From sequence record OR427838.1: a stretch of 64,000 bases of DNA. One strand, written 5' to 3'. Below the pieces are notes generated by a model that worked only from the letters and a program-made list of their open reading frames with translations, was not told the origin of the DNA and ran no database searches. Below are positions 1,295 through 44,526 of the stretch, piece by piece; positions within the stretch are counted from its first letter, which is position 1, and each line of letters opens with the position of its first letter. Source of the DNA: Escherichia phage fDHCT2. The position numbers and the translations under genes are program-made.

Positions 1295-1532
1295 CCTTGA
1301 TGCATGATTCAGCCATATGGATTAATGTTTCTGGAGTATCATCTACCATTACATTAAAGCTAAATTCCACAGCCCAATCGGTAGCAACATAAACTTTAAT
1401 AAGCTCGTTGGTATCACGAGTGCTCACCGCTTCAAACCAGAACTTAATTGTATTCGGTTCGTTATCATCATCTAGAACCAGGCAGTCATGCTCAAGCTCA
1501 AGACCCGATTTTTTGAATTCATCTAATGTCAT
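1269..1532 (-). CDS. hypothetical small acidic protein (46.2-like position)
   Basis: 87-aa ORF, tightly packed between 47 and 46. Confidence 0.5.
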   Translation of the reverse strand: MTLDEFKKSGLELEHDCLVLDDDNEPNTIKFWFEAVSTRDTNELIKVYVATDWAVEFSFNVMVDDTPETLIHMAESCIKDAYNDENV

Positions 1533-2551
1533 CGCGTAACCTCATTATAAAGTTGTGCAGCCATGGTTTTGAGGGCCTTAACGTCATCTTCGGTATGTCC
1601 ATCTGGTAAAGCATCGATATAATCATACATCATATCCAAGAGGGACTTAACTTCATCTTCCTCTTCAGAATCATCGATATCAACGCTGTTATCTACCTTA
1701 GACACAATACGTAAAGAGTGAACAACCTTTTCAAGCTCTGATTCGAACTTAGTAAGACCGTCATCGATTTTATCGACTATAACACGAACTGCGATATTTG
1801 TAAAATCTTTGTAATCGATAGTCGCGTTAGGATAATGAATCTTACGATGCCAACAGGTTTCATTAATGATGAAATCCATTTTATGAGTTTCGGTATCGAA
1901 AATCCAGAAACCACGAGGGTCGTTCTCATCACCTGCAGTCAGGGTCCATGGAGTACCAATGTACTTAACGTTTGCTGCATCAGAAATAGTGTGGAAGTGG
2001 CCTGACCAAACTTGCTTATACTTTTTAAGGAAATCAGGTTCTAAACCATGGGATTTCATTCCTTTATAGAAATAGAAACCATTTAATTCCCAATGCCCAA
2101 TACAGAAATCTGCTGTGGTATTTTTGATATGGTCCATGATATCGGTCGTGTTTTCTTCACACATCCATGGAATCAAATCAATTTCGGTGCCATCAAAGTT
2201 AACCGTAGTAGGTTTTTCAATAACCTTGATATGGTCATATTTACCCAGAACTTCAGAAGCAGCATTAGGAGTCAAGGTATTTTTGTAGTGCATATCATGA
2301 TTACCAACAACGGTATACATGGTAATGCCATTAGCTTTAAGCAAATCAGAGATTTCGCGAGCGAATTCCATGCACTTGTGGGTAATTGCTTTACGAACAT
2401 CAAAGATATCACCGTATTGAATCCATACAGTAATGCCATTTGCTTTAGAATAATCAATAGCGTCTTGGATACCTTGACGTTGGATATTTTGTACCCACAC
2501 ATCATCAGCCTTAACTCCAAGGTGCCAGTCACCGGTGTTTAATATTTTCAT
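1529..2551 (-). CDS. 47: Recombination endonuclease subunit gp47 (Mre11/SbcD-like metallophosphoesterase)
   Basis: MKILNTGDWHLG N-terminus, GNHD and GHFH phosphoesterase motifs; start placed at internal Met (track ORF begins 9 codons upstream). Confidence 0.9.
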   Translation of the reverse strand: MKILNTGDWHLGVKADDVWVQNIQRQGIQDAIDYSKANGITVWIQYGDIFDVRKAITHKCMEFAREISDLLKANGITMYTVVGNHDMHYKNTLTPNAASEVLGKYDHIKVIEKPTTVNFDGTEIDLIPWMCEENTTDIMDHIKNTTADFCIGHWELNGFYFYKGMKSHGLEPDFLKKYKQVWSGHFHTISDAANVKYIGTPWTLTAGDENDPRGFWIFDTETHKMDFIINETCWHRKIHYPNATIDYKDFTNIAVRVIVDKIDDGLTKFESELEKVVHSLRIVSKVDNSVDIDDSEEEDEVKSLLDMMYDYIDALPDGHTEDDVKALKTMAAQLYNEVTR

Positions 2552-2693
2552 AAGCCAAGCGCCGTTATCGAAATACAAAATAAAATTATTGAAATGAACC
2601 CGTCAGAAGTGGAAAAGAATCCTATCCAACAAGCTCTTGTGAATGTGTAGAATGCCATGAATAACACGACATATCCTAAAAATAATTCCATAT
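2548..2693 (-). CDS. small hydrophobic peptide (~47 aa)
   Basis: SD gaggag + ATG; stop overlaps gp47 start (ATGA); below 60-aa track cutoff. Confidence 0.3.
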
Positions 2694-2711
2694 GTTCTCC
2701 TCAGTTGGTTC

Positions 2712-2740
2712 ATTTTATCATCCGAATATAAAGCAAAAAA
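2712..2740 (-). promoter_or_regulatory. candidate MotA-dependent middle promoter (GCTTTA box, 11 nt, TAAAAT)
   Basis: minus-strand ttttttGCTTTAtattcggatgaTAAAAT immediately after terminator T-run. Confidence 0.3.
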
Positions 2741-2754
2741 GGAGCCTAAGCTCC
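2735..2754 (-). terminator. rho-independent terminator
   Basis: minus-strand ggagcttaggctcc hairpin followed by TTTTTT. Confidence 0.5.
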
Positions 2755-2977
2755 TTTACCAATTAATACACCGTACAGAGGTTCGTGATTAGACCTGAAC
2801 TTGATAGGCTTATAGGTAATAGTACCTTCATTTTCCGCTTTAATACGAGCAGCTTCAAATTTAAGTATCATCTCATTTTTGTCAGATTTAATCTTATCAA
2901 AATCCGTCGAATTCGTCATTCATAAAACCTCTTAAACTTTTTCGTATTCGTCATTCATTAGCCTGCAGTCCATGTTA

Positions 2978-3178
2978 TCATCGCTGCCACCATTTCTTAA
3001 GTTGATGAGAATCTACCCAAACCTTGGCTACAGGTTCAATCTGAAAAATTCCATCAGAATACTGACCAACCATTTTGTATTCGGTTTCGGACTGCTTAAT
3101 ACAGATATTACCGTATGAGCGAAGTCTGAAAGCGGCTCCAACAAGAAGCCGTTTAAAGGGTTTATTTACTAAGGCCAT
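2978..3178 (-). CDS. hypothetical protein
   Basis: 66-aa ORF in tight minus-strand array. Confidence 0.4.
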   Translation of the reverse strand: MALVNKPFKRLLVGAAFRLRSYGNICIKQSETEYKMVGQYSDGIFQIEPVAKVWVDSHQLKKWWQR

Positions 3179-3473
3179 TGACGATTTCCCAAATTTGTTT
3201 GCGGGTAGATTCCCACATCAATTGAACAAGTTCATCAGTAACAGGTTGACGGTAAATACCGCGTAATTTAATTAAAGCGTACTTATATGCTTCAAAGTTG
3301 TTTTCAAGTACAGCGCCTTGGGCATGGAGATTTAAACGACGGATTTCACGAGCATTCTTCTTAAGAATCTTAGCCGCTTGCGAATTAGCTTCTTTAATAT
3401 TGTGCTCTTCTAAACGTTGCTGGGCTTCTTCAATTTGCTCATCAGTCAATTGAGAAATGTCATGGCTTTGCAT
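3162..3473 (-). CDS. hypothetical protein
   Basis: 103-aa ORF, helical/charged. Confidence 0.5.
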   Translation of the reverse strand: MQSHDISQLTDEQIEEAQQRLEEHNIKEANSQAAKILKKNAREIRRLNLHAQGAVLENNFEAYKYALIKLRGIYRQPVTDELVQLMWESTRKQIWEIVNGLSK

Positions 3474-3474
3474 A

Positions 3475-3741
3475 TTAATCCTTTGGAGTCAATTCGATAG
3501 TGAAGTAGAAATTAGCGTTCTCAACATGATAACGATAATCTACGTTATTGTCAGGAGAAGTGAATTCAATATTCCTGACGTTAAGTGGGTCAATATCAAT
3601 AGGAAGGCCTTTAACATCCCGTAATATCAATTTAATAAAATAAGGGAGTGCTTCGAAGTCTTCCATTCCATCTAAAAGTGGAGTGATATTAATCTGATGT
3701 TCCATATAAAAAATCCAGTTCGCCAACTTTAGGTTCGGCAC
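3475..3741 (-). CDS. hypothetical protein
   Basis: 88-aa ORF immediately downstream of gene 55; start may be an internal Met. Confidence 0.45.
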
Positions 3742-4246
3742 TCTTATCAGACCCTGGTGCTTTAGTTAAAGAGGTTTCATACTGTGTCATTTTATCGTAG
3801 ATATCTTGGATAAAGGTTTCATCTGCAATACCTACCATATCGTCATCATTACTGTCATAGACATTATGGACGAAGTAGCTGTATTTCTTTGCCATTTCTT
3901 TACGTTCTTTCTTGATACGCTGAACAAAGGCATTAAAACAAGCCATAGTGATATATGCATGTGGGTTGTCGTATTTTGTTTCGTCGAAGTTGTGAAGACC
4001 TTTAATAGAAGCTTCGATTCCATCAGCAATCATTTCTTGCTTCCAGGATTGGGTATACCCGGAGAAGTTGAAACGCTTAGAAAGGCCTTCAGCAATGAGC
4101 ATAATAGCCAAGCCGATAACATCGTTCTGACGAACTATTTTATTAGGATCGGTATTTTCTCGGAGCTCTGTTTTCCACTGGGTAATGGCTTTCAGAAGCT
4201 CCTTATTATTTACATAGTTATTTTTAGTCAGTTTAATTTCGGTCAT
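3689..4246 (-). CDS. 55: Late-transcription sigma factor gp55
   Basis: 185 aa; [63 protein letters not shown] match T4 gp55 from memory. Confidence 0.9.
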
Positions 4247-4312
4247 TGTTACCTCAGATAACTCAAATCATAGGTCTATTATATCATAGTATTTGAAGAC
4301 CCGTTTAAAGCA

Positions 4313-4576
4313 TCAACGGAGTAAGCAATAAGCCTGAAATACTGTTTCAAGAATTTTTTTGAACTCTTCAAAGGAAGGGGCCCCTTCAAACCCTTGGCTT
4401 TGAATGTAAAGGCAGAATTGTTGGTAAAGAACCAAATATTCGGATTGATTATATTTGGAAATATGAGACTTCCACACTTCAGAAGTCTCTCCGCAAATAA
4501 ACTCAACATTCATATAGTTATCTATTAAGAAAAATCCTAAGCCTTCATAAGCTAATGTTATGGATACAGGCGTCAT
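4313..4576 (-). CDS. hypothetical protein
   Basis: 87-aa ORF; 4-nt overlap with upstream ORF. Confidence 0.5.
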   Translation of the reverse strand: MTPVSITLAYEGLGFFLIDNYMNVEFICGETSEVWKSHISKYNQSEYLVLYQQFCLYIQSQGFEGAPSFEEFKKILETVFQAYCLLR

Positions 4577-4839
4577 TGTAGGAATCTGGCTCCTTCTAGT
4601 GCATCATCAAGATTATCAAACTCATCAACGTAATCAATACCGCCGACCTCATCTTTAGCGTATAGCCAGTACTGTTTAAATTCATATTCAATAATAAAGT
4701 GGTCACCCTCAATCTGGAGAACCCCATCACTATTAAATTGAACTGCATAACCGGTAAAGCGGACATCATTCAAGAGTTCTTCTTTCATAGCAATCATTTC
4801 CAAGTTTTTATCGTAATTAGAGAGTTTTATTTTAATCAT
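4573..4839 (-). CDS. hypothetical protein
   Basis: 88-aa ORF. Confidence 0.5.
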   Translation of the reverse strand: MIKIKLSNYDKNLEMIAMKEELLNDVRFTGYAVQFNSDGVLQIEGDHFIIEYEFKQYWLYAKDEVGGIDYVDEFDNLDDALEGARFLQ

Positions 4840-5080
4840 TTAAATAATCCTCAAATTCATTTAATGTCATGCCTTCGTCCCAAGCTATTTTAGGATCGGG
4901 CATTTTCATATAAGTGGTCTTAGAGCTTATAGGAAATATCCTGAAATCGCGATGACTTCCACTTAACATATTAGCCGCTTTTATAATAGTTTCACTATTA
5001 TTCATCATAGGGGTACGTTGGAAACCGGCTAAAGCTTTAAGGACTATTATAACCGATACATCTTCAGGCAAATTACTCAT
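4832..5080 (-). CDS. hypothetical protein
   Basis: 82-aa ORF. Confidence 0.5.
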   Translation of the reverse strand: MSNLPEDVSVIIVLKALAGFQRTPMMNNSETIIKAANMLSGSHRDFRIFPISSKTTYMKMPDPKIAWDEGMTLNEFEDYLND

Positions 5081-5406
5081 TTCGCAGCCTTAACAATTTT
5101 CAGGTCAACGAATTTTTTCTTACGTTGATTCTTCATACGACGGATGGTTTTGTCTGTGATTTCACCTGGCTGCCAAGCTTTAGATTCAACACCAAAGGCG
5201 GCCACATCAAACTCGTCGAGAATATATTGAACCAGGATTTCACGAATACCGTTCTTACCAATTTTTTGGTCTTTAGAGTGCATGATTGGTAACAGTTCAG
5301 CAACCCATTGGTCAAGAACCTGAGGAGTTACAAAGCCGGTTTTCATCAGTTCGTTAACTTTATCGAAAGCGAAAGAGTTCAGTACGTTTTTAATAGCTTG
5401 TGACAT
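5077..5406 (-). CDS. hypothetical protein (basic C-terminus)
   Basis: 109-aa ORF preceded by gaggaaa SD. Confidence 0.5.
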   Translation of the reverse strand: MSQAIKNVLNSFAFDKVNELMKTGFVTPQVLDQWVAELLPIMHSKDQKIGKNGIREILVQYILDEFDVAAFGVESKAWQPGEITDKTIRRMKNQRKKKFVDLKIVKAAK

Positions 5407-5474
5407 AATAATTTCCTCAGTTTAAAATTTATAATCCATGGGACCATTATACTCGGGTCCCAAGAGTTTGTAAA

Positions 5475-5675
5475 CTATTTTTGTGCTAATGCGCCTTTCC
5501 AACCTTCATACATCATTGCGGCCGATATTAATATTGCTCCTGAGCATTTTGAATATTTGTTATTCCAAAACCAGTTTAGAAAAACTTCATCATCAATACC
5601 TTGGGCTATCATATTTTCAAAGAACTGACGTCGAGATTCAGCAATTCGCTGTGATAATTTAGATTCAGGATTCAT
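5475..5675 (-). CDS. hypothetical protein
   Basis: 66-aa ORF. Confidence 0.45.
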   Translation of the reverse strand: MNPESKLSQRIAESRRQFFENMIAQGIDDEVFLNWFWNNKYSKCSGAILISAAMMYEGWKGALAQK

Positions 5676-5900
5676 TTAAATTTTCCAGTTACCGTGTTTA
5701 TCAATGAATTTAATCCAGTCATTTACTGACCACGTGGTTGTATCGCCCTTTGGACTGACATTTAAAGTGTATAGTCCTTGCTTAAAAAGCATCCGTTTGA
5801 TATTCATATTTTCCTCAGCTGTAACGATAGCATTCGTTTGATTTACGTTTTGCAACTTGATGAGAAGTATTGTAATCAGGTTCATCGTCGTTGTAAACAT
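5676..5900 (-). CDS. hypothetical protein (true start possibly internal Met near 5807)
   Basis: 74-aa ORF overlapping the 3' end of the next ORF. Confidence 0.35.
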   Translation of the reverse strand: MFTTTMNLITILLIKLQNVNQTNAIVTAEENMNIKRMLFKQGLYTLNVSPKGDTTTWSVNDWIKFIDKHGNWKI

Positions 5901-6108
5901 CTTTTTTCAGCTTTCTCACTTCTTTACGAAGCTGGCGATTCATTTCATTCTTAACTTCAGAATCAACACCGCGCATACGTTTCCACTTGTCGGAACGGAA
6001 GATATTTTCTTCAACTCGTTCCTGACTTACGCCGTCTGGTGCTTTACGGCGTCCGGAATAATAAAAATCTTTTACAGACAATTCTTTACGACGGATAGTT
6101 TTACCCAT
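5815..6108 (-). CDS. hypothetical highly basic protein
   Basis: 97-aa Lys/Arg-rich ORF. Confidence 0.45.
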   Translation of the reverse strand: MGKTIRRKELSVKDFYYSGRRKAPDGVSQERVEENIFRSDKWKRMRGVDSEVKNEMNRQLRKEVRKLKKDVYNDDEPDYNTSHQVAKRKSNECYRYS

Positions 6109-6110
6109 AG

Positions 6111-6365
6111 TTACCTCAACAGTTTGTATCCAATAAGATTTTTAATGTACTGGATGTCTTTGACATCCAAATCCAACTTAATATCTTTCAAGCGCTCAGC
6201 CAGAGTAAGAAATGTTACTCGCTTCCAATTCTTAACCGGACAGCAATAAGTTTTCGGCCCGTTAGCGATTTCAATATTTTTATCTGTGGCGGTGATAAAA
6301 ATCAAACGTTCATCATCAAGATTAAGGGTGATGACATTTTTCATTGAATGTAATTTCAGGCTCAT
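6111..6365 (-). CDS. hypothetical protein
   Basis: 84-aa ORF. Confidence 0.45.
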   Translation of the reverse strand: MSLKLHSMKNVITLNLDDERLIFITATDKNIEIANGPKTYCCPVKNWKRVTFLTLAERLKDIKLDLDVKDIQYIKNLIGYKLLR

Positions 6366-6544
6366 AATTTAATTTCCTTGGCTATCGAACAAAACAAACT
6401 ACGGTCACATACCATCATTGGAATATTTCTATGGTCCAGTACACGATACCATACGTCTGAATCGCTAGCAGCAATTACACGAACCGCACGCCCGTTTACC
6501 AAATAATACTGGTCGGCTTTAATTTCTTTATCTTGGATAGTCAT
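6362..6544 (-). CDS. hypothetical protein
   Basis: 60-aa ORF directly downstream of an early promoter. Confidence 0.5.
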   Translation of the reverse strand: MTIQDKEIKADQYYLVNGRAVRVIAASDSDVWYRVLDHRNIPMMVCDRSLFCSIAKEIKL

Positions 6545-6573
6545 AATGTTCTCCTCATGTGTTGATAGGATAG

Positions 6574-6602
6574 ACTATAACACGTGAGGAGAGGAAGTAA
6601 AC
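6574..6602 (-). promoter_or_regulatory. T4-type early sigma70 promoter
   Basis: minus-strand GTTTAC-17nt-TATAGT with TGn; -10 flanked by inverted repeat ctcctcacgtgt/acacatgaggag that includes the SD. Confidence 0.55.
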
Positions 6603-6603
6603 A

Positions 6604-6921
6604 CTAATCTTCAATTAAATCTCGGTCATAACCAAGTTCAATCAAAAGTGCTTTAAAAGCAGGAATATTTTCTATTTTCTTATTATCAACAAAGATGACA
6701 GGATAGCGTATAGCTAAGCTCTTGAAGCCGGCCCGTTTGGCCAATGATACTATAAGAGGCTTGTCATATACTGCGCCTGACAGCGTCCGGTTAATCACAG
6801 GATAGAAAGTATGTGGGATAGAAAGGGAATTTAGGAGCGATAGAACAGCAATGCACCCTGGACAGCGCATGACTGTCTCAGGGATACCGTAAATCTCAAT
6901 TTTAGTTAACTTTTGGTCCAC
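6604..6921 (-). CDS. thioredoxin/glutaredoxin-fold protein (CPGC active-site motif)
   Basis: KIEIYG beta-strand followed by CPGC; 105 aa. Confidence 0.55.
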   Translation of the reverse strand: MDQKLTKIEIYGIPETVMRCPGCIAVLSLLNSLSIPHTFYPVINRTLSGAVYDKPLIVSLAKRAGFKSLAIRYPVIFVDNKKIENIPAFKALLIELGYDRDLIED

Positions 6922-7198
6922 AGGAAATAACTCCTTGGTAGTCCCAAGTTTTTAGAACTTCGTCTTCATTAGTTCCATATGGGACGTAAATCTGGATAAG
7001 GAACCCAGTATCATCAAAAGAGAAGTAGACAGTAGGTTTAATACCATGAATCTCTGACAGAGCATAGATGTCCTTGAGGTCGTCTTCCTTACCTTTAAAG
7101 AATTCAGGGTTCAGGTCACAGTCATGGAAGTACCAATCATCACCAAACTTGTCCCATGCGGTCCAATTCAAAGCTACATATTCTTCAAAACGTTTCAT
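6902..7198 (-). CDS. hypothetical protein
   Basis: 98-aa ORF. Confidence 0.45.
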   Translation of the reverse strand: MKRFEEYVALNWTAWDKFGDDWYFHDCDLNPEFFKGKEDDLKDIYALSEIHGIKPTVYFSFDDTGFLIQIYVPYGTNEDEVLKTWDYQGVISCGPKVN

Positions 7199-7422
7199 TC
7201 TTTCACCTTCATCATTTTTGCTATAACACTATGAACAGCCTGGATTCGTTTGTTGAACTCAGACCCTTCAAGACCTTTTTCAGTACTCAGCGCACCAATA
7301 ATAACGAACAGCAATCCAAATGGGATGGCCAGGATTAAAAGGCACACGATAAACAGAACTAATGTAATATTGGCCAGGATATCAGAAACAGCATTACGAA
7401 ATTTATTCATTAAAGAACCCAC
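7195..7422 (-). CDS. small membrane protein
   Basis: 75 aa with a long hydrophobic stretch LANITLVLFIVCLLILAIPFGLLFVIIGAL. Confidence 0.5.
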   Translation of the reverse strand: MGSLMNKFRNAVSDILANITLVLFIVCLLILAIPFGLLFVIIGALSTEKGLEGSEFNKRIQAVHSVIAKMMKVKE

Positions 7423-7531
7423 ATATTAGTTACAACAAATAACCATTGAGCAGGATACTCAACACCCATAATACGCACTGCATCGTTCAGAGATTCAGCT
7501 AGAGCATAGAATGTGTAGCCATAAAAATTAA

Positions 7532-8005
7532 TCATTTAAGCGATTTCCTCAGTTGTTTTTTAAATGAATCGACCATTTGTTTCTTTGTGTCAGATTCATT
7601 ATAAGTCATTCCATGTGAAAGCATTTCAGCAATCATTTCTTCCTTACCTAATCTACTGAACTCTTTGGTTTTATCAGGAACGAAATTAGGATGGATATTG
7701 TTTTCAGTGTAATCAGATTTCAGATAGACCAGCAAATTCTCTAACCATTCGAGGTAGTCAACGTTTTGACCTTTAAGACCAGAACGGTTGAACTTATGCT
7801 TCATTTGTCCTTCTGCAGCATTGCACAGGTTACATAGTAAACCACGAACCTTACCGGCTTTCGGCCCATTCAATTCATGGTCGTGGTCAAGGTGGTTACT
7901 TTGAACATCAGGGTTTAATTCACGTTTACAAATCAAACACTTACCATGTTGTACATCATAAAGTTTTTGTTTTTCTTCTTTGTATAGTTTGCCAGTCAAC
8001 AACAT
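7532..8005 (-). CDS. 49: Endonuclease VII (Holliday-junction resolvase) gp49
   Basis: 157 aa; MLLTGKLYKEEKQKLYD...HLDHDHELNGPKAGKVRGLLCNLCN matches T4 gp49 from memory. Confidence 0.9.
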   Translation of the reverse strand: MLLTGKLYKEEKQKLYDVQHGKCLICKRELNPDVQSNHLDHDHELNGPKAGKVRGLLCNLCNAAEGQMKHKFNRSGLKGQNVDYLEWLENLLVYLKSDYTENNIHPNFVPDKTKEFSRLGKEEMIAEMLSHGMTYNESDTKKQMVDSFKKQLRKSLK

Positions 8006-13750: not shown

Positions 13751-14731
13751 TTATTTCAGAAGTGTAACTTCAGCGATTTCGCTCCAGTCATTTTTATCGG
13801 TGGCAATGAAGTCCGCCAGATAAAGAGCCGTACGTAATGATACGTTACGAAGACGAGATACATTGGCCTTCATCCATGCTAGAGCTTGATAAGTCTCAGC
13901 ATCAGTCAGACCTCGGTTTTGCATCATATCAGTGGACAGGATAACGTCTTCAACACGAACCATAATCTCTTCATTCGAGTGAACTCCGAGGTCTAAGTAA
14001 ACTGAACGAGATACTAAAGCCTGGAGGTGTGGAGCAAGTTTAGTGCCACGTTCTAATTCACGGTCAATATCAACGTTGGTGATGAACACGATGGTGCCTT
14101 CATATTCGAATTCTTTATCGATATTTTTATCATCGAGGTAAGAACTTGAAGTGCTCCAGCACACCTTACGTTTTTCACCGGTATCCAATGCCGCTTTTAA
14201 CAGGTTCAGGATATCCATATCAGAGAATACATCGACATCATCGATAAGAAGAACACTATTAGGGCCGCGGTTATTCCAAAGCTGCTCGTAAAGACCGATT
14301 CCACTAATCTTTCCGTTGATTGATTTATATTCGATAGTTTCATTTTCGTGGGCATTCTGTAATGCTTTATCCAAAGAATACGTTTTACCAATACCTGCGG
14401 CACCAGAGATGATAAGGGAACGAATTTTACCATCGATGATTCCGTTAGTCATCATGTTCATTACTTTAAAACGTTTGTTGATGCGGTGTTTCATTTCTTC
14501 AGCGGATTCAGTAACCACTACAGGAGCTTCAGCACCTTCCATTTCAACATCACATTTGAACACCCATATACCACGTTCAACACCATCAATCTGTACGAAT
14601 ACCTTACCATCACCGAGGTGAGCTTCGGATTCATGAATTTTGTTAGGGAACCAGGTTTTACCTGAACTCATGAACGTACCAGAGATTTCATTACCGCGAT
14701 AGATACCTTTGTTGATTTTGATAGTTAACAT
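13751..14731 (-). CDS. P-loop (AAA-type) ATPase with ~120-aa N-terminal domain
   Basis: Walker A GAAGIGKT, Walker B VLLIDDVD; start at MLTIKINKG. Confidence 0.65.
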   Translation of the reverse strand: MLTIKINKGIYRGNEISGTFMSSGKTWFPNKIHESEAHLGDGKVFVQIDGVERGIWVFKCDVEMEGAEAPVVVTESAEEMKHRINKRFKVMNMMTNGIIDGKIRSLIISGAAGIGKTYSLDKALQNAHENETIEYKSINGKISGIGLYEQLWNNRGPNSVLLIDDVDVFSDMDILNLLKAALDTGEKRKVCWSTSSSYLDDKNIDKEFEYEGTIVFITNVDIDRELERGTKLAPHLQALVSRSVYLDLGVHSNEEIMVRVEDVILSTDMMQNRGLTDAETYQALAWMKANVSRLRNVSLRTALYLADFIATDKNDWSEIAEVTLLK

Positions 14732-14768
14732 TATATTCTCCGTTTCACTCAGTAGATTTGATAGGTCC

Positions 14769-14797
14769 ATAATAACATGCTCTACGAGGTTGTAAAC
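14769..14797 (-). promoter_or_regulatory. T4-type early sigma70 promoter
   Basis: GTTTAC-17nt-TATTAT with TGt. Confidence 0.55.
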
Positions 14798-14813
14798 ACT
14801 TTTTTGCACTAAA

Positions 14814-14839
14814 CCCAAAAAAGGACCCCGAAGGGTCCT
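14814..14839 (-). terminator. rho-independent terminator
   Basis: minus-strand aggacccttcggggtcct hairpin + TTTTTT. Confidence 0.6.
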
Positions 14840-26275: not shown

Positions 26276-26504
26276 CGTCTCGTTTCCATGATTGGTTAAA
26301 AATATCTTGCATAATAATTTGAAGTCTATTTTCTGATGATGGACTTTCACTATCAGACACTTGAAGCATATAGTCACCAATAGGACAGAACATATCCATA
26401 TCGCTTTCTAAGTCTTCTTTAATTTTCTCTTCTGATGTTCCGGTGTCATAGGAATACAGATAAGAATCACATGACTCAGATTTAATATAAATTGCAATAC
26501 TCAT
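26268..26504 (-). CDS. hypothetical acidic protein
   Basis: 78-aa ORF. Confidence 0.4.
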   Translation of the reverse strand: MSIAIYIKSESCDSYLYSYDTGTSEEKIKEDLESDMDMFCPIGDYMLQVSDSESPSSENRLQIIMQDIFNQSWKRDDE

Positions 26505-27094
26505 TTACGGCATTCCTTAATAAACTCATTTAAATTATGTTTGTTTTTACCTTCGTCGTAAAGACGTTGTTGACGACGTAAACGCCATGGCATTTCAATA
26601 GCCAAGCACCAAATACTTAAAGCAGCGCCAGCTGTGAAAAGATTCATTAATCCGGCGCCAATAATAGTTCGTTCTAGCGCATCATTCCAGTTAGCATCGA
26701 TTAAAAATGAACTCAACACTAACATTGGAAGTAAAGTAATAAAATACGCTACAACATATCGTCCGAACGTAAGCCATTCAGTATCGATGAGCTTAGCCTT
26801 TCCATCTTGGAGACAAATATACTTATCGTCAGTGCGGGTGATTTTCTTTACCGGTTGCCAACCATTTACGATATAACCCATTCTGAACTCCTCAATTAAA
26901 AGCTGTTTCATTTCGGCAGTACAACCTGACCAATCTATTGTACTGGCTGAAATTCCTTCATCACCGTCATCGATATTTCGCCAGGACTTTTTAATAATCA
27001 TAGTCTCACCACTTGGGATAATAATTCCGGCATTTTCCGACCGACGGATGAAGTTTGTATCAATACCCATACAACCAGGTTCATAAAGGGCCAT
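26501..27094 (-). CDS. membrane protein
   Basis: 197 aa with C-terminal TM helices. Confidence 0.5.
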   Translation of the reverse strand: MALYEPGCMGIDTNFIRRSENAGIIIPSGETMIIKKSWRNIDDGDEGISASTIDWSGCTAEMKQLLIEEFRMGYIVNGWQPVKKITRTDDKYICLQDGKAKLIDTEWLTFGRYVVAYFITLLPMLVLSSFLIDANWNDALERTIIGAGLMNLFTAGAALSIWCLAIEMPWRLRRQQRLYDEGKNKHNLNEFIKECRK

Positions 27095-28085: not shown

Positions 28086-29045
28086 TTATTTTTCGAAAGG
28101 ACGAATTAAATGATGGTTATCTTGGAAACGCTTGATGTAGTCGTTTTCACCTAAAGTCTTATACATATTCACTACAGCTTGGTAGTTTTCCCAGGCGTAC
28201 TCGCGGAACCAACCTGAAGTGATTGAGGTACACACTTTCTCAAGAGCCATATAAAAACTTAATGATGGTGAAATATTGAAGTCATTAGGAACCTGTGAAC
28301 GTTCTAGTGCCAGGACACAAGTTTCTTCATATACACCAGCCAGTTTAATAGCTTCAGGCAAAGCCTCGAACTTCTCACGAGAGGTCATGACTTCAGAACC
28401 TTCCTTCATATAAAAGGTATATGCAGGGCGTCCAGCCAATGCTACTGCTTCATGAATAGAGTCATGGTCCAGCGTATAAATGGTATCATTAAAGAACGAT
28501 GATTTGTTTACGTCCAATTTAGGGTGAGAATAGCTCAACGTTTCTTTTTGACGTTGCAACATAATTTCCCGGAGTTCTTCGTTCAGGGTGATACCTTTAT
28601 TACGAAGGTATTTGATGTGGGACATAGTTTTCAAGAAGAACGGATTATTCTTCAGGAAACGATGAGAGGTTTTGATAGCCAGACAGATATCAGGGGTTGC
28701 CCAATAGAAACCAGTAAGACGGTCCTTTTTAATATGATTTTCAGCATATTTCAGGAGACGATAACTTGAAGTGAAATCTTCGTCTTGAAGCTCGCCAGTA
28801 ATTTCTCGTACGTTAGTCAGAGCACGGACAATATAAGCTTCAAAATAGGTTTCTTTACCATTGTACATACATTTAAAGGCCTGGACATCAGGGTTATCCA
28901 CAGGAACATGAGCGCCGAACATCCGGGCTTTAAAGTGATTCCATGAGCCTTGGTCGGCAATGAAATCCCAATCAGAATTTTCGATATGCTTACTTTCAAT
29001 CAGACCAGCGTGGTGCAGTGCACGAGAACCAATAACTAGCATCAT
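28086..29045 (-). CDS. hypothetical protein (319 aa)
   Basis: long ORF; no motif I recognise. Confidence 0.5.
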   Translation of the reverse strand: MMLVIGSRALHHAGLIESKHIENSDWDFIADQGSWNHFKARMFGAHVPVDNPDVQAFKCMYNGKETYFEAYIVRALTNVREITGELQDEDFTSSYRLLKYAENHIKKDRLTGFYWATPDICLAIKTSHRFLKNNPFFLKTMSHIKYLRNKGITLNEELREIMLQRQKETLSYSHPKLDVNKSSFFNDTIYTLDHDSIHEAVALAGRPAYTFYMKEGSEVMTSREKFEALPEAIKLAGVYEETCVLALERSQVPNDFNISPSLSFYMALEKVCTSITSGWFREYAWENYQAVVNMYKTLGENDYIKRFQDNHHLIRPFEK

Positions 29046-40674: not shown

Positions 40675-42461
40675 TGATTAACATGTCTGATAATGTAAGT
40701 TGGTTCGTCGGTGTAGTTGAAGACCGAATGGACCCGCTCAAACAAGGCCGAGTACGTGTACGCGTATGGGGTATGCATCCCTATGAAAAGGTACAAGGCC
40801 CTGTAAAAGGTCTTCGTACAGAAGATTTACCATGGATGTCGGTATTAATGCCTACATCTTCGGCCTCTGTTTCAGGTATACAAACCGCTATGACCGGTAT
40901 GGTCCCAGGTACACAAGTTTATGGCCACTTTCTTGATAAGTGGAAATTAAACGGACTTGTCCTCGGTACATACGGTTCTGCATCAAAACAAAAAGCAAAC
41001 CCTAATGAAGGTTTTAGCGACCCAACAGGCCAATATCCACTTTATTTAGGTAACGATGCCGCTGCACTAAACCGAGGTGGTGAAGTTGGATATGATGCCA
41101 CTTCTAACGTAATCCAGGATTCTAACCTAGATTTAGGTATTAATCCTGACGGTTTAGATTTAAGTCAAGTCAAGCCTGACGATAATCCTAATTTCACAAT
41201 AGAAAACATGCTTCACCGTGATGAAGGGCTTCGACTGAAGGTATATTGGGACACCGAAGGTTATCCTACTATCGGTATAGGTCACCTTATTACGCCACAA
41301 CCTATTAGAGATATGAACCAAATAAACAAAATATTGTCTAAACAAATAGGTCGAGAAGTTAAAGGTAACCCTGGTGCAATATCAATGGACGAGGCTTCTA
41401 AATTATTCCAAGAAGACCTTAAAAAAGTCCAAAGCGATATAGGTCGACATAGTGTTGTGGGTCCGGTTTACAATAAAGAAAACCGTTCAAGACAAATGGC
41501 TCTTGAAAACATGGCTTTCCAAATGGGTTTAGGTGGGCTTGCTAAATTCCGTGGTATGCTCAGTGCTATGCTAATAGGCGATTATAAAAAGGCATTTGAG
41601 GAAGCTCGTAATTCAGTGTGGTTCAACCAAACTAAGGGCCGTGCATCAAGGGTATCAATGATTATCCTTACAGGTAACATGGAATCATACGGTATTATGG
41701 CCCCTAAAGAAAGGTCATTTAAAGGGCGTTCGTATAGAATGATTCAAACTTTTGCCGCACCTGCAAATTCAGACCCAGCCGACCCATGGACCCCAGAAGA
41801 TACAAGGATTCTGTTTAAAGAGCCAGAATCAAGTTACAAGGGCGAATATCCTTACGTGCAGACAATGCAAACTGAAGGTGGGCATATCCAAGAATTCGAT
41901 AACACCCCAGGGCAAGAACGTTATCGTTTAATCCATCCTACAGGTAGTTATGAAGAAGTTGCTCCTGATGGCCGCAAAACTTCTAAGACGGTAGCCGATG
42001 GTTATTATATGACCCAAGGCGATTCTAATACTTATGTCGGCGGTAATAATAAAGTCAACATAGGCGGTGATGAAACATATTATAATATGGCTAACGTTCG
42101 CCGTCAGACCGACGGAAACGAAAGCATTCATATTCGAGGGAATGAAACCAAAACTGTAGAAGGTAATGGAACTCTGCTTGTTAAAGGAAATGTTAAAATA
42201 GTTATTATGGGTACTGCTGATATAACTGTTGAACAAGAAGCATATATTACGGTTGAAAAAGATACAACAGTTAATGTCAACCAGAATGCAGATATAAGCG
42301 TTAAACAAAAGGCCACAATCAATGCTCAAAATATGGATGTAAATGTCGAACAAGATTTAAATTTTGCAGCGACGAACATTAATTTAAACGCATCAAATAC
42401 TGTGCATATGGATGGCGGTTCATTAGCTAAAGTATCTGGTGGCAACGTACAGGTCGGTTAA
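40674..42461 (+). CDS. 5: Baseplate hub/cell-puncturing protein gp5 with lysozyme domain
   Basis: N-terminal WFVGVVEDRMDP...RVRVRVWG, lysozyme-like GLRLKVYWDTEGYPTIGIGHL, C-terminal beta-helix repeats. Confidence 0.9.
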   Translation: MINMSDNVSWFVGVVEDRMDPLKQGRVRVRVWGMHPYEKVQGPVKGLRTEDLPWMSVLMPTSSASVSGIQTAMTGMVPGTQVYGHFLDKWKLNGLVLGTYGSASKQKANPNEGFSDPTGQYPLYLGNDAAALNRGGEVGYDATSNVIQDSNLDLGINPDGLDLSQVKPDDNPNFTIENMLHRDEGLRLKVYWDTEGYPTIGIGHLITPQPIRDMNQINKILSKQIGREVKGNPGAISMDEASKLFQEDLKKVQSDIGRHSVVGPVYNKENRSRQMALENMAFQMGLGGLAKFRGMLSAMLIGDYKKAFEEARNSVWFNQTKGRASRVSMIILTGNMESYGIMAPKERSFKGRSYRMIQTFAAPANSDPADPWTPEDTRILFKEPESSYKGEYPYVQTMQTEGGHIQEFDNTPGQERYRLIHPTGSYEEVAPDGRKTSKTVADGYYMTQGDSNTYVGGNNKVNIGGDETYYNMANVRRQTDGNESIHIRGNETKTVEGNGTLLVKGNVKIVIMGTADITVEQEAYITVEKDTTVNVNQNADISVKQKATINAQNMDVNVEQDLNFAATNINLNASNTVHMDGGSLAKVSGGNVQVG

Positions 42462-42462
42462 T

Positions 42463-44526
42463 ATGAATTACTACGATAAAGTTGATGAAGTGGTAGGGAC
42501 TGTAACAAGTCCCTGTGATGACGCAGTAGGACCTGGTGAATATCGCCGGGTTAAATGGGAATTATATAACCCAACAGGTGCTTTTATTCAACCCGGGAAT
42601 GGCGTTGAATGGGATACCGAGATTATTCCACTAGCTACACATTTATACACACAAAATCCATTTGGTAATAAGTCCGAAACTTTTCCTGCACCTCCCCCGC
42701 CGGAAGATGGAACAAGTCAAGGTATCTGGTGTGCTAAACTCGGAATATTCTTTATTACGCAATTGGATTTAGAAAATTATGTAGAATCGATTGGTGCAAC
42801 TCTTTTGCCCGGTAATGATTGGTACGGCGCTGATTTATCAAAATCTGTATTGTATAAAACATCTATTGAATATGATATGTATCGCATCGAAAACTGTGGC
42901 GGTGTATGGACGTCACAAGGCCCCAGAATGGACCCCAGGACGATGATTGCAGTTACGGCTGATTATCATATGTATGTCAACTTTAACGGCCTTGGTGACT
43001 CCCGCAGGGCTTATTTGAAGTACTATGAGACAAAACCTTGTACTTATGTTGGACTGGTATTAAATCTAGATGTTGATATGAGTATCCCAGGAACTCCGAT
43101 TCCAGGACCGGTATCCATCGGGTCTTTACCACCAGAAATAACCGGGCGAGCCAGGGCAATAAGCTGTGTTCCTTTTACAGCGGAATTCCCTTACAACGGA
43201 TTGACCAATGCGATTATGGCTTCATGGAATACATCTAGGAATTCATTCAAATTATATTGGGATATGCTCCCTGGATGGCCATCATCTGGTGGAACCGATT
43301 GGGAAAAATTCTTCGATTCCGGTTATAGTAAGCTATCGGTCGCAATGGAAGAGCTAGGCAACTCAGCTGTTGCTATGTGTCAATATGTTCAGCAAATGGC
43401 TTTTCTTGCATTTAAAGATGCCATATCACAGGTCTTGGATATTGTTGGTGGTGGGTGGGACTTACTTAAAAGCTTTTTACCCTCGATTACTATTATGGGC
43501 ATGACTATTGACCTGGAAGACCTCTGCACTTCAGGTGATGGTGTACAGAAATTAAAAGAAGCATGGAAAAACTTTAATTTAGAAGAAACCATCCAATCGA
43601 TTTATTCTGCCATTGGGTCGGCATACGATTATTCGGTTGAACGCGTCAAGATGTATTCGCGTGACCTTATTGATGCAATTACAGATTTGTATGACTGGGC
43701 CTGGTCTCAATTGCTTATGGCTGGTGTTGCATTATCAAAACTGTGTGTAGACCTCGCTCAAATATGGAGTATGCCTCCTATAGTTCCGAACCCAGTTTGG
43801 AGCGTTATTACTGCGGTCAAGGAAATGATGAAGCAAGTTAAACCACTGGACATGATAATGAGCGGTAACTTTCCAGGATTCACAGCATCAGATGTTTATC
43901 AAATGGTTATGGAAAAGGTAGACCAGAAAATAGACGAAGCTTATGCAATGATTGAGGCTCTTAAAACCCAGGCACTCAATCTGTGGAATGAGATTAAGCT
44001 CAAAAAGCAAGAAGTACAAAAACAAGCTATTGAATTTAAACAATATCTTTCAGGAATGTACGAAAAAGTTACAGACGAGCTAACTGCTCAGAAGGAAGCC
44101 GCATTAGCACAAGCTGAAGCTGCACTTGAACTTTTAAAGAATAAATATAAACAGATTAAGAACTCTATTACCGAAAGTCAAACCTCCGTTTCTGATGTAT
44201 TAGATATGGCTTTAGAAGAATTCAAAAAACTTCCTATTGTGGCTCAAATGGAAGAACTTCTCGGTATGCTCGGAGCTACTGTAGATGATATCATGGTTAT
44301 ATACGAGAACTCAGTAACTAAAGCAAAATCTTTATATCACGAATTTACTGATGGTTCCAGGTCAATGAAAGACTTGTGCAAATCAATGTATAACCAAATA
44401 TCAACATTATCCTTAAGTAAGGTGGTACAATGGATTAATAAGATGCTGGGAATATTCGGTTTAACGATTGCATTTCCATCCCTTTCCATTTGCATACCTT
44501 GTTTAGAATCTCCTACTAGGAATTAA
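42463..44526 (+). CDS. hypothetical 687-aa protein (baseplate-module insert; coiled-coil C-terminal half)
   Basis: ATG 1 nt after gp5 stop, stop 1 nt before gp6 ATG; no T4 counterpart of this size that I know at this locus. Confidence 0.6.
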   Translation: MNYYDKVDEVVGTVTSPCDDAVGPGEYRRVKWELYNPTGAFIQPGNGVEWDTEIIPLATHLYTQNPFGNKSETFPAPPPPEDGTSQGIWCAKLGIFFITQLDLENYVESIGATLLPGNDWYGADLSKSVLYKTSIEYDMYRIENCGGVWTSQGPRMDPRTMIAVTADYHMYVNFNGLGDSRRAYLKYYETKPCTYVGLVLNLDVDMSIPGTPIPGPVSIGSLPPEITGRARAISCVPFTAEFPYNGLTNAIMASWNTSRNSFKLYWDMLPGWPSSGGTDWEKFFDSGYSKLSVAMEELGNSAVAMCQYVQQMAFLAFKDAISQVLDIVGGGWDLLKSFLPSITIMGMTIDLEDLCTSGDGVQKLKEAWKNFNLEETIQSIYSAIGSAYDYSVERVKMYSRDLIDAITDLYDWAWSQLLMAGVALSKLCVDLAQIWSMPPIVPNPVWSVITAVKEMMKQVKPLDMIMSGNFPGFTASDVYQMVMEKVDQKIDEAYAMIEALKTQALNLWNEIKLKKQEVQKQAIEFKQYLSGMYEKVTDELTAQKEAALAQAEAALELLKNKYKQIKNSITESQTSVSDVLDMALEEFKKLPIVAQMEELLGMLGATVDDIMVIYENSVTKAKSLYHEFTDGSRSMKDLCKSMYNQISTLSLSKVVQWINKMLGIFGLTIAFPSLSICIPCLESPTRN

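Follow-up and report, generated by a model that had tools for sequence, protein, structure and literature searches.

The region between genes 47 and 49 of Escherichia phage fDHCT2 (positions 2551-7532 of the 64,000-nucleotide stretch of record OR427838.1 that we analysed, hereafter the window) lacks the alpha-glucosyltransferase gene a-gt and the anaerobic ribonucleotide reductase genes nrdD and nrdG, which T4 carries there. With a probability of about 85%, we read this region as the T4 47-55-49 early/middle block in its usual Dhakavirus (JS98-type) form, devoid of three kinds of optional T4 insert: a-gt, the class III (anaerobic) nrdD-nrdG pair, and homing-endonuclease elements, namely mobB, mobC, and I-TevII together with its intron. 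At both sites the absence is seamless. It is real, ordinary for the genus and already published in both its parts: a-gt was described in "T-even type phages only", RB69 and JS98 having homologs of genes 42 and 56 and no glucosyltransferases, with no homing endonucleases recorded in JS98 (Petrov 2010, PMC2993671), and JS98, JS10, IME08 and VR7 were entered as "nrdB-nrdA, class I", T4 and RB69 as "I+III" (Dwivedi 2013, PMC3653736 Table S1). Our additions are modest: a seamless ATGA junction, a conserved small open reading frame (ORF) at that junction, and a mosaic relationship between the phages SP18, VR7 and RB69.

A Dhakavirus region without the optional T4 inserts

By nucleotide identity, fDHCT2 is a Dhakavirus (JS98-like Tevenvirinae, relatives of T4): C6, IME341, IME08, JS98 and AnYang match 12-kb and 25-kb queries from the window at 92-96% identity over 91-100% of their length. 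For the first 12 kb, about 50 phage records reach a coverage of at least 80%, at 91-94% identity (best: C6, IME341, IME08, WG01 and JS98), and the same Dhakavirus relatives match the right-hand 25 kb at 93-96%. JS98 and the other Dhakaviruses (C6, IME341, IME08, WG01, AnYang) share the gene order, the empty a-gt and nrdDG sites and the junction sequences with the window. None of the matching records is identical to it, which makes fDHCT2 a distinct JS98-type isolate. JS98 lacks an 82-amino acid (aa) ORF of the window (4832-5080), its small ORF before gene 49 has 37 aa instead of 41, and both JS98 and C6 lack the 695-aa ORF that the window carries after gp5. The window is about one third of a genome of ~170 kb, its position 1 being equivalent to C6 ~34.0 kb and JS98 ~34.2 kb, and the regions beyond the 64 kb were judged from relatives, namely C6 (the closest complete genome) and JS98. 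The tblastn searches covered the whole window, C6 1-35000 and 98000-169530, and JS98 1-46963; C6 ~34-99.5 kb is represented by the window itself and JS98 47-96 kb was judged by its annotation.

The order in the T4 record is 47, 47.1, a-gt, mobB, a-gt.2 to a-gt.5, 55, 55.1 to 55.6, nrdH, 55.8, nrdG, mobC, nrdD (with the I-TevII intron) and 49. The original prediction, made from the letters of the window, had placed a-gt of T4 between 47 and 55 and the nrd genes between 55 and 49, and the T4 record bears this out. Direct comparison with T4, which had been proposed as a way to overturn the absence, left it standing. Each of the small T4 ORFs from 47.1 to 49 has an ortholog at the corresponding place in the window, with order and strand conserved (tblastn of T4 proteins, E=1e-12 to 1e-96; Table 1). 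Thus gp47, gp55, NrdH, gp49 and the conserved small ORFs are common to both phages in order and orientation, whereas a-gt, mobB, nrdG, mobC and nrdD with the I-TevII intron are extra in T4. Conversely, T4 lacks the ORFs similar to RB69 ORF072c, ORF079c and ORF082c that the window has in common with RB69 (a Mosigvirus). The intervals had been described as containing ORFs of 60-110 aa only; these range from 41 to 109 aa, and gp55 itself (185 aa) comes in addition.

Searches of the window agree with this comparison. T4 a-gt, b-gt, mobB, mobC, nrdG, both nrdD exons and I-TevII gave chance-level matches only (tblastn, best E 0.59-4.3). For a-gt the best match has E=1.0 over 15 aa, and the gap between 47.1 and a-gt.2 is 54 nucleotides (nt) long, where a gene of ~400 aa would be expected. 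The T4 exons of NrdD (the glycyl-radical large subunit) and T4 NrdG (the radical-SAM activase, ~156 aa) matched nothing below E 0.9. No ORF on the minus (early-gene) strand exceeds 356 aa, so an intact NrdD (~605 aa) cannot hide on that strand, and Pfam scans of the window's uncharacterised ORFs returned no glycosyltransferase, radical-SAM or glycyl-radical family.

The absence does not extend to nrdH. Of the genes reported missing, a-gt, nrdG and nrdD are indeed missing by tblastn, but the thioredoxin-like protein with a CPGC motif that had been set apart from them is, by sequence, the NrdH ortholog, kept despite the absence of nrdD and nrdG. Its homology to T4 NrdH, in which the CPGC motif is conserved, and its match to the PHROG family phrog_22 ("thioredoxin domain", E=9e-14) identify it. 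It is a distant paralog of the window's NrdC (25% identity, CxxC motifs aligned, E=8e-6). It has no Pfam match and no PDB sequence match, and its AF2 single-sequence model has a pLDDT of 45.5, too low for a fold search.

Two seamless junctions

At the nrdDG site, a conserved ORF of 41 aa precedes 55.8, and its ATG (7535-7533) overlaps the stop codon of gene 49 as ATGA, in the exact place occupied by the nrdD ATG in T4, RB69 and SP18. In these three phages, the nrdD start shares bases with the gene 49 stop (AAAATGA...), and the small-ORF start likewise with the end of nrdG (CATGATTAA); in the window and in JS98, it is the small-ORF start itself that shares bases with the gene 49 stop (CTTAAATGATTAAT). 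The nrdDG cassette is therefore absent to the nucleotide, with translational coupling preserved. The 41-aa ORF has a homolog of 37 aa, situated between nrdG and 55.8, in RB69 (z=5.6-7.9; none of 2000 shuffles scored as high), in SP18 and, with a 1-nt frameshift, in T4.

This small ORF (phrog_3350, 37-41 aa) is unannotated in JS98, RB69 (stretch ~42470-42580) and T4 (stretch ~28340-28450); compared with RB69 and SP18, a T run of the T4 reference differs by 1 nt, which breaks the ORF there. Kosakonia phage 305 (Kanagawavirus, stretch 2244-2363) has the same layout of 55.8, small ORF and 49, and there too the small-ORF ATG overlaps the gene 49 stop.

At the a-gt site, an independent terminator scan found a hairpin (GGAGCTTAGGCTCC) with a T run at 2757-2738, overlapping the a-gt.2 stop. 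It is followed by a TGCTTTA box (2735-2729), the hexamer TAAAAT (2717-2712) and the ATG of 47.1 at 2691. Judged by the consensus, TGCTTTA..TAAAAT is a candidate MotA-type middle promoter. In T4, two similar intergenic units bracket a-gt-mobB, each consisting of a GC-rich hairpin (GGAGCTTCGGCTCC or GGGCTTCGGCCC) followed by T(T/A)GCTTTATA and by a -10-like hexamer (TAAAAT or TATAAT). Between a-gt.2 and 47.1, the same single unit stands in the window, in JS98 and in RB69, which also lacks a-gt at this junction; in the window it is composed of hairpin, GCTTTATA and -10. The 5' half of this unit resembles the a-gt.2-proximal copy of T4 and its 3' half (...CGGA...) the 47.1-proximal copy.

Such a chimeric-looking unit fits, in a way that is suggestive only, recombination between repeated regulatory cassettes, as in the PeSLs of RB49 and phi1 (PMC2839356), and the a-gt block would then be gained or lost by recombination between the repeated units. 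Like the PeSL cassettes (Arbiol 2010, PMC2839356), the a-gt site has a unit of stem-loop and putative promoter in an intergenic gap adjoining a variable block, the unit being doubled in T4, which has the block, and present as one chimeric-looking copy in the window, JS98 and RB69, which do not. Unlike in the PeSLs, the promoter part in the window looks like a MotA-box middle promoter and not a sigma-70 early one, the identity shared by the two T4 copies is short, and no mini-circles or recombination are on record for the a-gt site.

Proposed exchange of the nrdD-nrdG cassette

The contiguous nrdH to 49 arrangement of the window is found in 47 of the 1135 matching phage records, and within the sister genus Gaprivervirus both states occur: SP18 has nrdG-nrdD (fetched stretch 4880-7330) and VR7 does not (fetched stretch 2900-3040). 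Gene 49, 55.8 and nrdH are 93-96% identical between SP18 and VR7. Relative to RB69, SP18 is 94.7% identical in nrdG and 93.2% in nrdD, but only 54% in 55.8 and 61% in nrdH. In a sliding comparison, SP18 follows VR7 as far as a shared TATAATGAATCTGA ~50 nt ahead of the gene 49 stop, is RB69-type from there on, and goes back to VR7-type sequence where 55.8 starts. This profile points to a VR7-like backbone carrying an RB69-like patch of nrdD, nrdG and the small ORF. We thus infer from the sequence comparison that the nrdD-nrdG block behaves as an exchangeable cassette, able to cross genera by homologous recombination in conserved flanks, and such gains and losses would take place between co-infecting phages. 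The cassette may be bounded by the ATGA start/stop overlaps and swapped, with its small ORF, among Tevenvirinae genera through recombination in gene 49 and 55.8. If so, autonomy in anaerobic deoxynucleoside triphosphate (dNTP) synthesis would be a trait of strains and not of lineages.

The direction of change is less clear. That SP18 has the genes might suggest a derived loss in Dhakavirus, a reading set aside since VR7 and the identity profiles show the SP18 copy to be RB69-like. Within the Dhakavirus/Gaprivervirus group, absence of nrdDG seems to be the native condition. One possibility is that this backbone never had nrdD-nrdG and that the cassette entered the T-even and RB69 lineages by insertion, with a secondary insertion in SP18. 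The nrdDG-less state of Dhakavirus, of the Gaprivervirus VR7 and of the Kanagawavirus phage 305 speaks for this, as do the RB69-like, non-native character of the only Gaprivervirus copy seen and the two types of small ORF, one accompanying each state (MINFY... where the cassette is absent, MIKLNY... where it is present). We still regard this history as rather unlikely: the combination of classes I and III is the usual state in T4-like phages of facultative anaerobes, distant ones included (PMC3653736), which makes an old loss at least as parsimonious.

Predicted DNA modification, from the relatives

The original prediction had deduced from the missing a-gt a different decoration of hydroxymethylcytosine (hmC), or none from a-gt. 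A different decoration is indeed likely, and was already known, but the base predicted is 5-hydroxycytosine and not hmC. Outside the window, the interval from uvsX to imm, occupied by segA, b-gt and gene 42 in T4, is filled in JS98 and C6 by homologs of RB69 proteins; in these close relatives the cluster is 8-12 kb upstream of the window. Identities to RB69 (tblastn, C6/JS98) are 64-70% for gp46:47, 79% for gp48, 37-38% for gp45, 62-63% for gp51 and 41-44% for gp52:53. The gp48 homolog is 79% identical to RB69 gp48 vs 25% to T4 gp42, and the gp52:53 homolog of the relatives has NTP_transferase (nucleotidyltransferase) and APH (sugar-kinase) domains.

The DNA of RB69 was first reported to contain arabinosyl-hmC (PMC6024577). 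A recent study corrects the base to arabinosylated 5-hydroxycytosine, shows that gp48 makes 5-hydroxydeoxycytidine monophosphate (5-hydroxy-dCMP), proposes gp46:47 as the first arabinosyltransferase and states that the cluster is conserved in Dhakaviruses (Lee 2026, PMC13326640). The same study describes an Asn at the E. coli ThyA-169 position as diagnostic of 5-hydroxy-dCMP synthases (Lee 2026, PMC13326640). C6 ORF43, JS98 orf39 and RB69 gp48 have Asn at this position, and T4 gp42 and the phage's own canonical td have Asp. Since the thymidylate-synthase homolog carries the Asn signature, arabinosylated 5-hydroxycytosine is the predicted base. In fDHCT2, judging from its close relatives, an RB69-type pathway between uvsX and imm would comprise a dCTPase, a 5-hydroxy-dCMP synthase, a kinase, synthesis of nucleoside diphosphate-arabinose and one arabinosyltransferase, and would yield arabinosylated 5-hydroxycytosine, not glucosyl-hmC.

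Relative to RB69, this pathway has gaps. The relatives carry homologs of gp45, gp46:47, gp48, gp51 and gp52:53, but RB69 ORF003c, the proposed second arabinosyltransferase, and the isomerase gp55 have no tblastn match in C6, JS98 or the window, and homologs of RB69 gp49 and gp50 are missing from the relatives as well. In C6, the gap between rIIA.1 and 39 holds two small unrelated ORFs. The missing homologs suggest that 5-hydroxycytosine receives only one arabinose and that arabinose 5-phosphate is provided by the host; E. coli makes it through KdsD and GutQ. Dhakaviruses may thus have mono-arabinosyl-5-hydroxycytosine and no isomerase of their own, distinct from the di-arabinosylated base of RB69, and if so their sensitivity to modification-dependent defences would differ. 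At the position of the RB69 arabinose-5-phosphate isomerase, C6 (26134-26634) and JS98 (26304-26804) have a 166-aa ORF with no meaningful Pfam match.

The same gaps could mean that the base, 5-hydroxycytosine or hmC, carries no sugar at all, a possibility raised for JS98 (Petrov 2010, PMC2993671). We consider this improbable, given that C6 and JS98 have intact copies of the gp46:47 homolog (64-70%) and of the bifunctional sugar-kinase/nucleotidyltransferase. The host route through KdsD and GutQ also argues against it. So does phage Thanatos, which is mono-arabinosylated and has one transferase gene (Lee 2026, PMC13326640). The combined picture, in which nrdD-nrdG and the trailing small ORF form a swappable cassette and the RB69 pathway exists in Dhakaviruses in a shortened form with one transferase, is tentative, and we give it somewhat less than even odds.

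The rest of the genome

The original prediction allowed that the genes had moved elsewhere. With only 64 kb of a genome of ~170 kb in hand, and since T4-type genomes move accessory genes (e.g., the RB69 transferase ORF003c lies far from its cluster, PMC8056088), this had to be considered. The RB69 NrdD and NrdG, which are intron-free and thus cleaner queries (RB69 keeps nrdG-nrdD between 55.8 and 49, unlike the window), gave nothing at E<=0.01 in the window or in the searched ranges of C6 and JS98. Searches with T4 and RB69 a-gt, b-gt, NrdD and NrdG likewise came up empty in the window, JS98 1-46963 and the parts of C6 beyond the window. The annotations agree: those of JS98 and of the fetched parts of C6 list only the aerobic nrdA and nrdB, and that of the remaining JS98 segment is without a-gt, b-gt, nrdD or nrdG. 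JS98, JS10 and IME08 were also entered as class I only (Dwivedi 2013, PMC3653736 Table S1). Relocation is thus very improbable, and the suggestion does not hold in the material searched. A deletion specific to this isolate or an assembly artefact, a generic worry for any missing gene with nothing specific in its favour here, can practically be dismissed: 47 independent phage records have the contiguous nrdH to 49 arrangement, ~50 cover at least 80% of the first 12 kb, and both junctions hold intact conserved ORFs and regulatory signals.

Several points weigh against our overall reading. The recombination model for the a-gt site, itself suggestive only, rests on a shared core of ~10 nt. The nrdDG-less state could be an old loss or the ancestral state. 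The pathway of the relatives, lacking ORF003c, gp49, gp50 and gp55, appears incomplete relative to RB69, which makes its product less than certain, and we found no data on Dhakavirus DNA chemistry in the searchable literature. Finally, everything said of the genome outside the window is drawn from relatives at 92-96% identity.

Consequences for the phage

The original prediction had also proposed that the phage relies on anaerobic dNTP synthesis by the host, and this dependence is plausible. In the presence of oxygen, dNTPs would come from the phage NrdAB, present in the relatives; under anoxia, judging from T4 biology, they would come from the pre-existing host NrdDG and from salvage of deoxynucleoside monophosphates from degraded host DNA. 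The lack of an anaerobic reductase in phages of gut and sewage is a mild ecological oddity, and could affect burst size in anoxic settings, e.g., in phage therapy of the gut. As for DNA chemistry, T4-type glucosyl-hmC DNA should not be assumed for fDHCT2. Defences against alpha-glucosyl-hmC are expected to miss it; the Brig1 glycosylase, for instance, leaves the arabinosylated phages Bas46 and Bas47 unaffected (PMC11078745). In restriction resistance, fDHCT2 is expected to be closer to RB69 than to T4. Neither the DNA-chemistry point nor the reductase point is new for the JS98 group, and the cassette exchange is a small addition to what is known of the modular evolution of T4-type phages.

Features of the region

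The genes and sites between the two anchors, gp47 and gp49, are listed in Table 1. The 82-aa ORF between 55.1 and 55.2 is another small presence/absence polymorphism within the group.

Table 1. Genes and sites of the 47-55-49 region in the window.
Feature	Position	Strand	Evidence
gp47, SbcD/Mre11-like nuclease subunit, left anchor	1529..2551	-	71% to T4 gp47, E=4e-163; JS98 annotation "47"
47.1 ortholog, 47 aa, predicted membrane protein	2548..2691 (aligned 2551-2685)	-	80% to T4 47.1, E=1e-20
Empty a-gt site, one regulatory unit	2692..2757	-	Scan and alignment with T4, RB69
a-gt.2 ortholog	2746-2919	-	tblastn vs T4, E=3e-17; Pfam/PHROG families
a-gt.3 ortholog	2978-3178	-	tblastn vs T4, E=5e-14; Pfam/PHROG families
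a-gt.4 ortholog, DUF2654	3162-3473	-	tblastn vs T4, E=6e-21; Pfam/PHROG families
a-gt.5 ortholog	~3493-3705 within ORF 3475-3741	-	tblastn vs T4, E=2e-14; Pfam/PHROG families
gp55, late-transcription sigma factor, 185 aa	3689..4246 (aligned 3692-4246)	-	79% to T4 gp55, E=2e-96
RB69 ORF072c-like, DUF7200	4313-4576	-	tblastn vs RB69, Pfam, PHROGs
55.1	4573-4839	-	tblastn vs T4, PHROGs
SP18gp066-like, 82 aa, phrog_5589	4832-5080	-	73% to SP18gp066; between 55.1 and 55.2
55.2	5077-5406	-	tblastn vs T4, PHROGs
55.3	5475-5675	-	tblastn vs T4, PHROGs
55.4	5679-5807	-	tblastn vs T4, PHROGs
55.5	5815-6108	-	tblastn vs T4, PHROGs
RB69 ORF079c-like, DUF7290	6111-6365	-	tblastn vs RB69, Pfam, PHROGs
55.6	6362-6544	-	tblastn vs T4, PHROGs
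NrdH ortholog, CPGC thioredoxin/glutaredoxin-like	6604..6921 (aligned 6607-6912)	-	61% to T4 NrdH, E=1e-37
RB69 ORF082c-like	6902-7198	-	tblastn E=8e-22; run 6902..7422 = phrog_2749 + phrog_1930
55.8, predicted membrane protein	7195-7422	-	tblastn E=1e-12; run 6902..7422 = phrog_2749 + phrog_1930
Conserved small ORF, 41 aa	7410..7535	-	phrog_3350, E=1e-22
gp49, endonuclease VII, right anchor	7532..8005 (aligned 7535-8005)	-	88% to T4 gp49, E=2e-94

Other observations in the window

Two further ORFs lie away from this region. An nrdC.10-like ORF of 355 aa (13751-14818, minus strand) has weak, sub-threshold matches to AAA/STAND NTPase and C-terminal helix-turn-helix domains. The 695-aa ORF (42439-44526, plus strand) separates gp5 from gp6, a position taken in JS98 and C6 by nothing more than the small genes 5.1 and 5.4. 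Some Dhakaviruses (WG01, Bp7, PSD2002, LHE83, FB, CJ20) and the Gaprivervirus SP18 carry it with 99% identity or more, and ~190 T4-like phages of Klebsiella, Enterobacter and Cronobacter at less than 60%. Pfam gave no significant match for this ORF, which may represent an exchangeable module associated with the baseplate or the spike.

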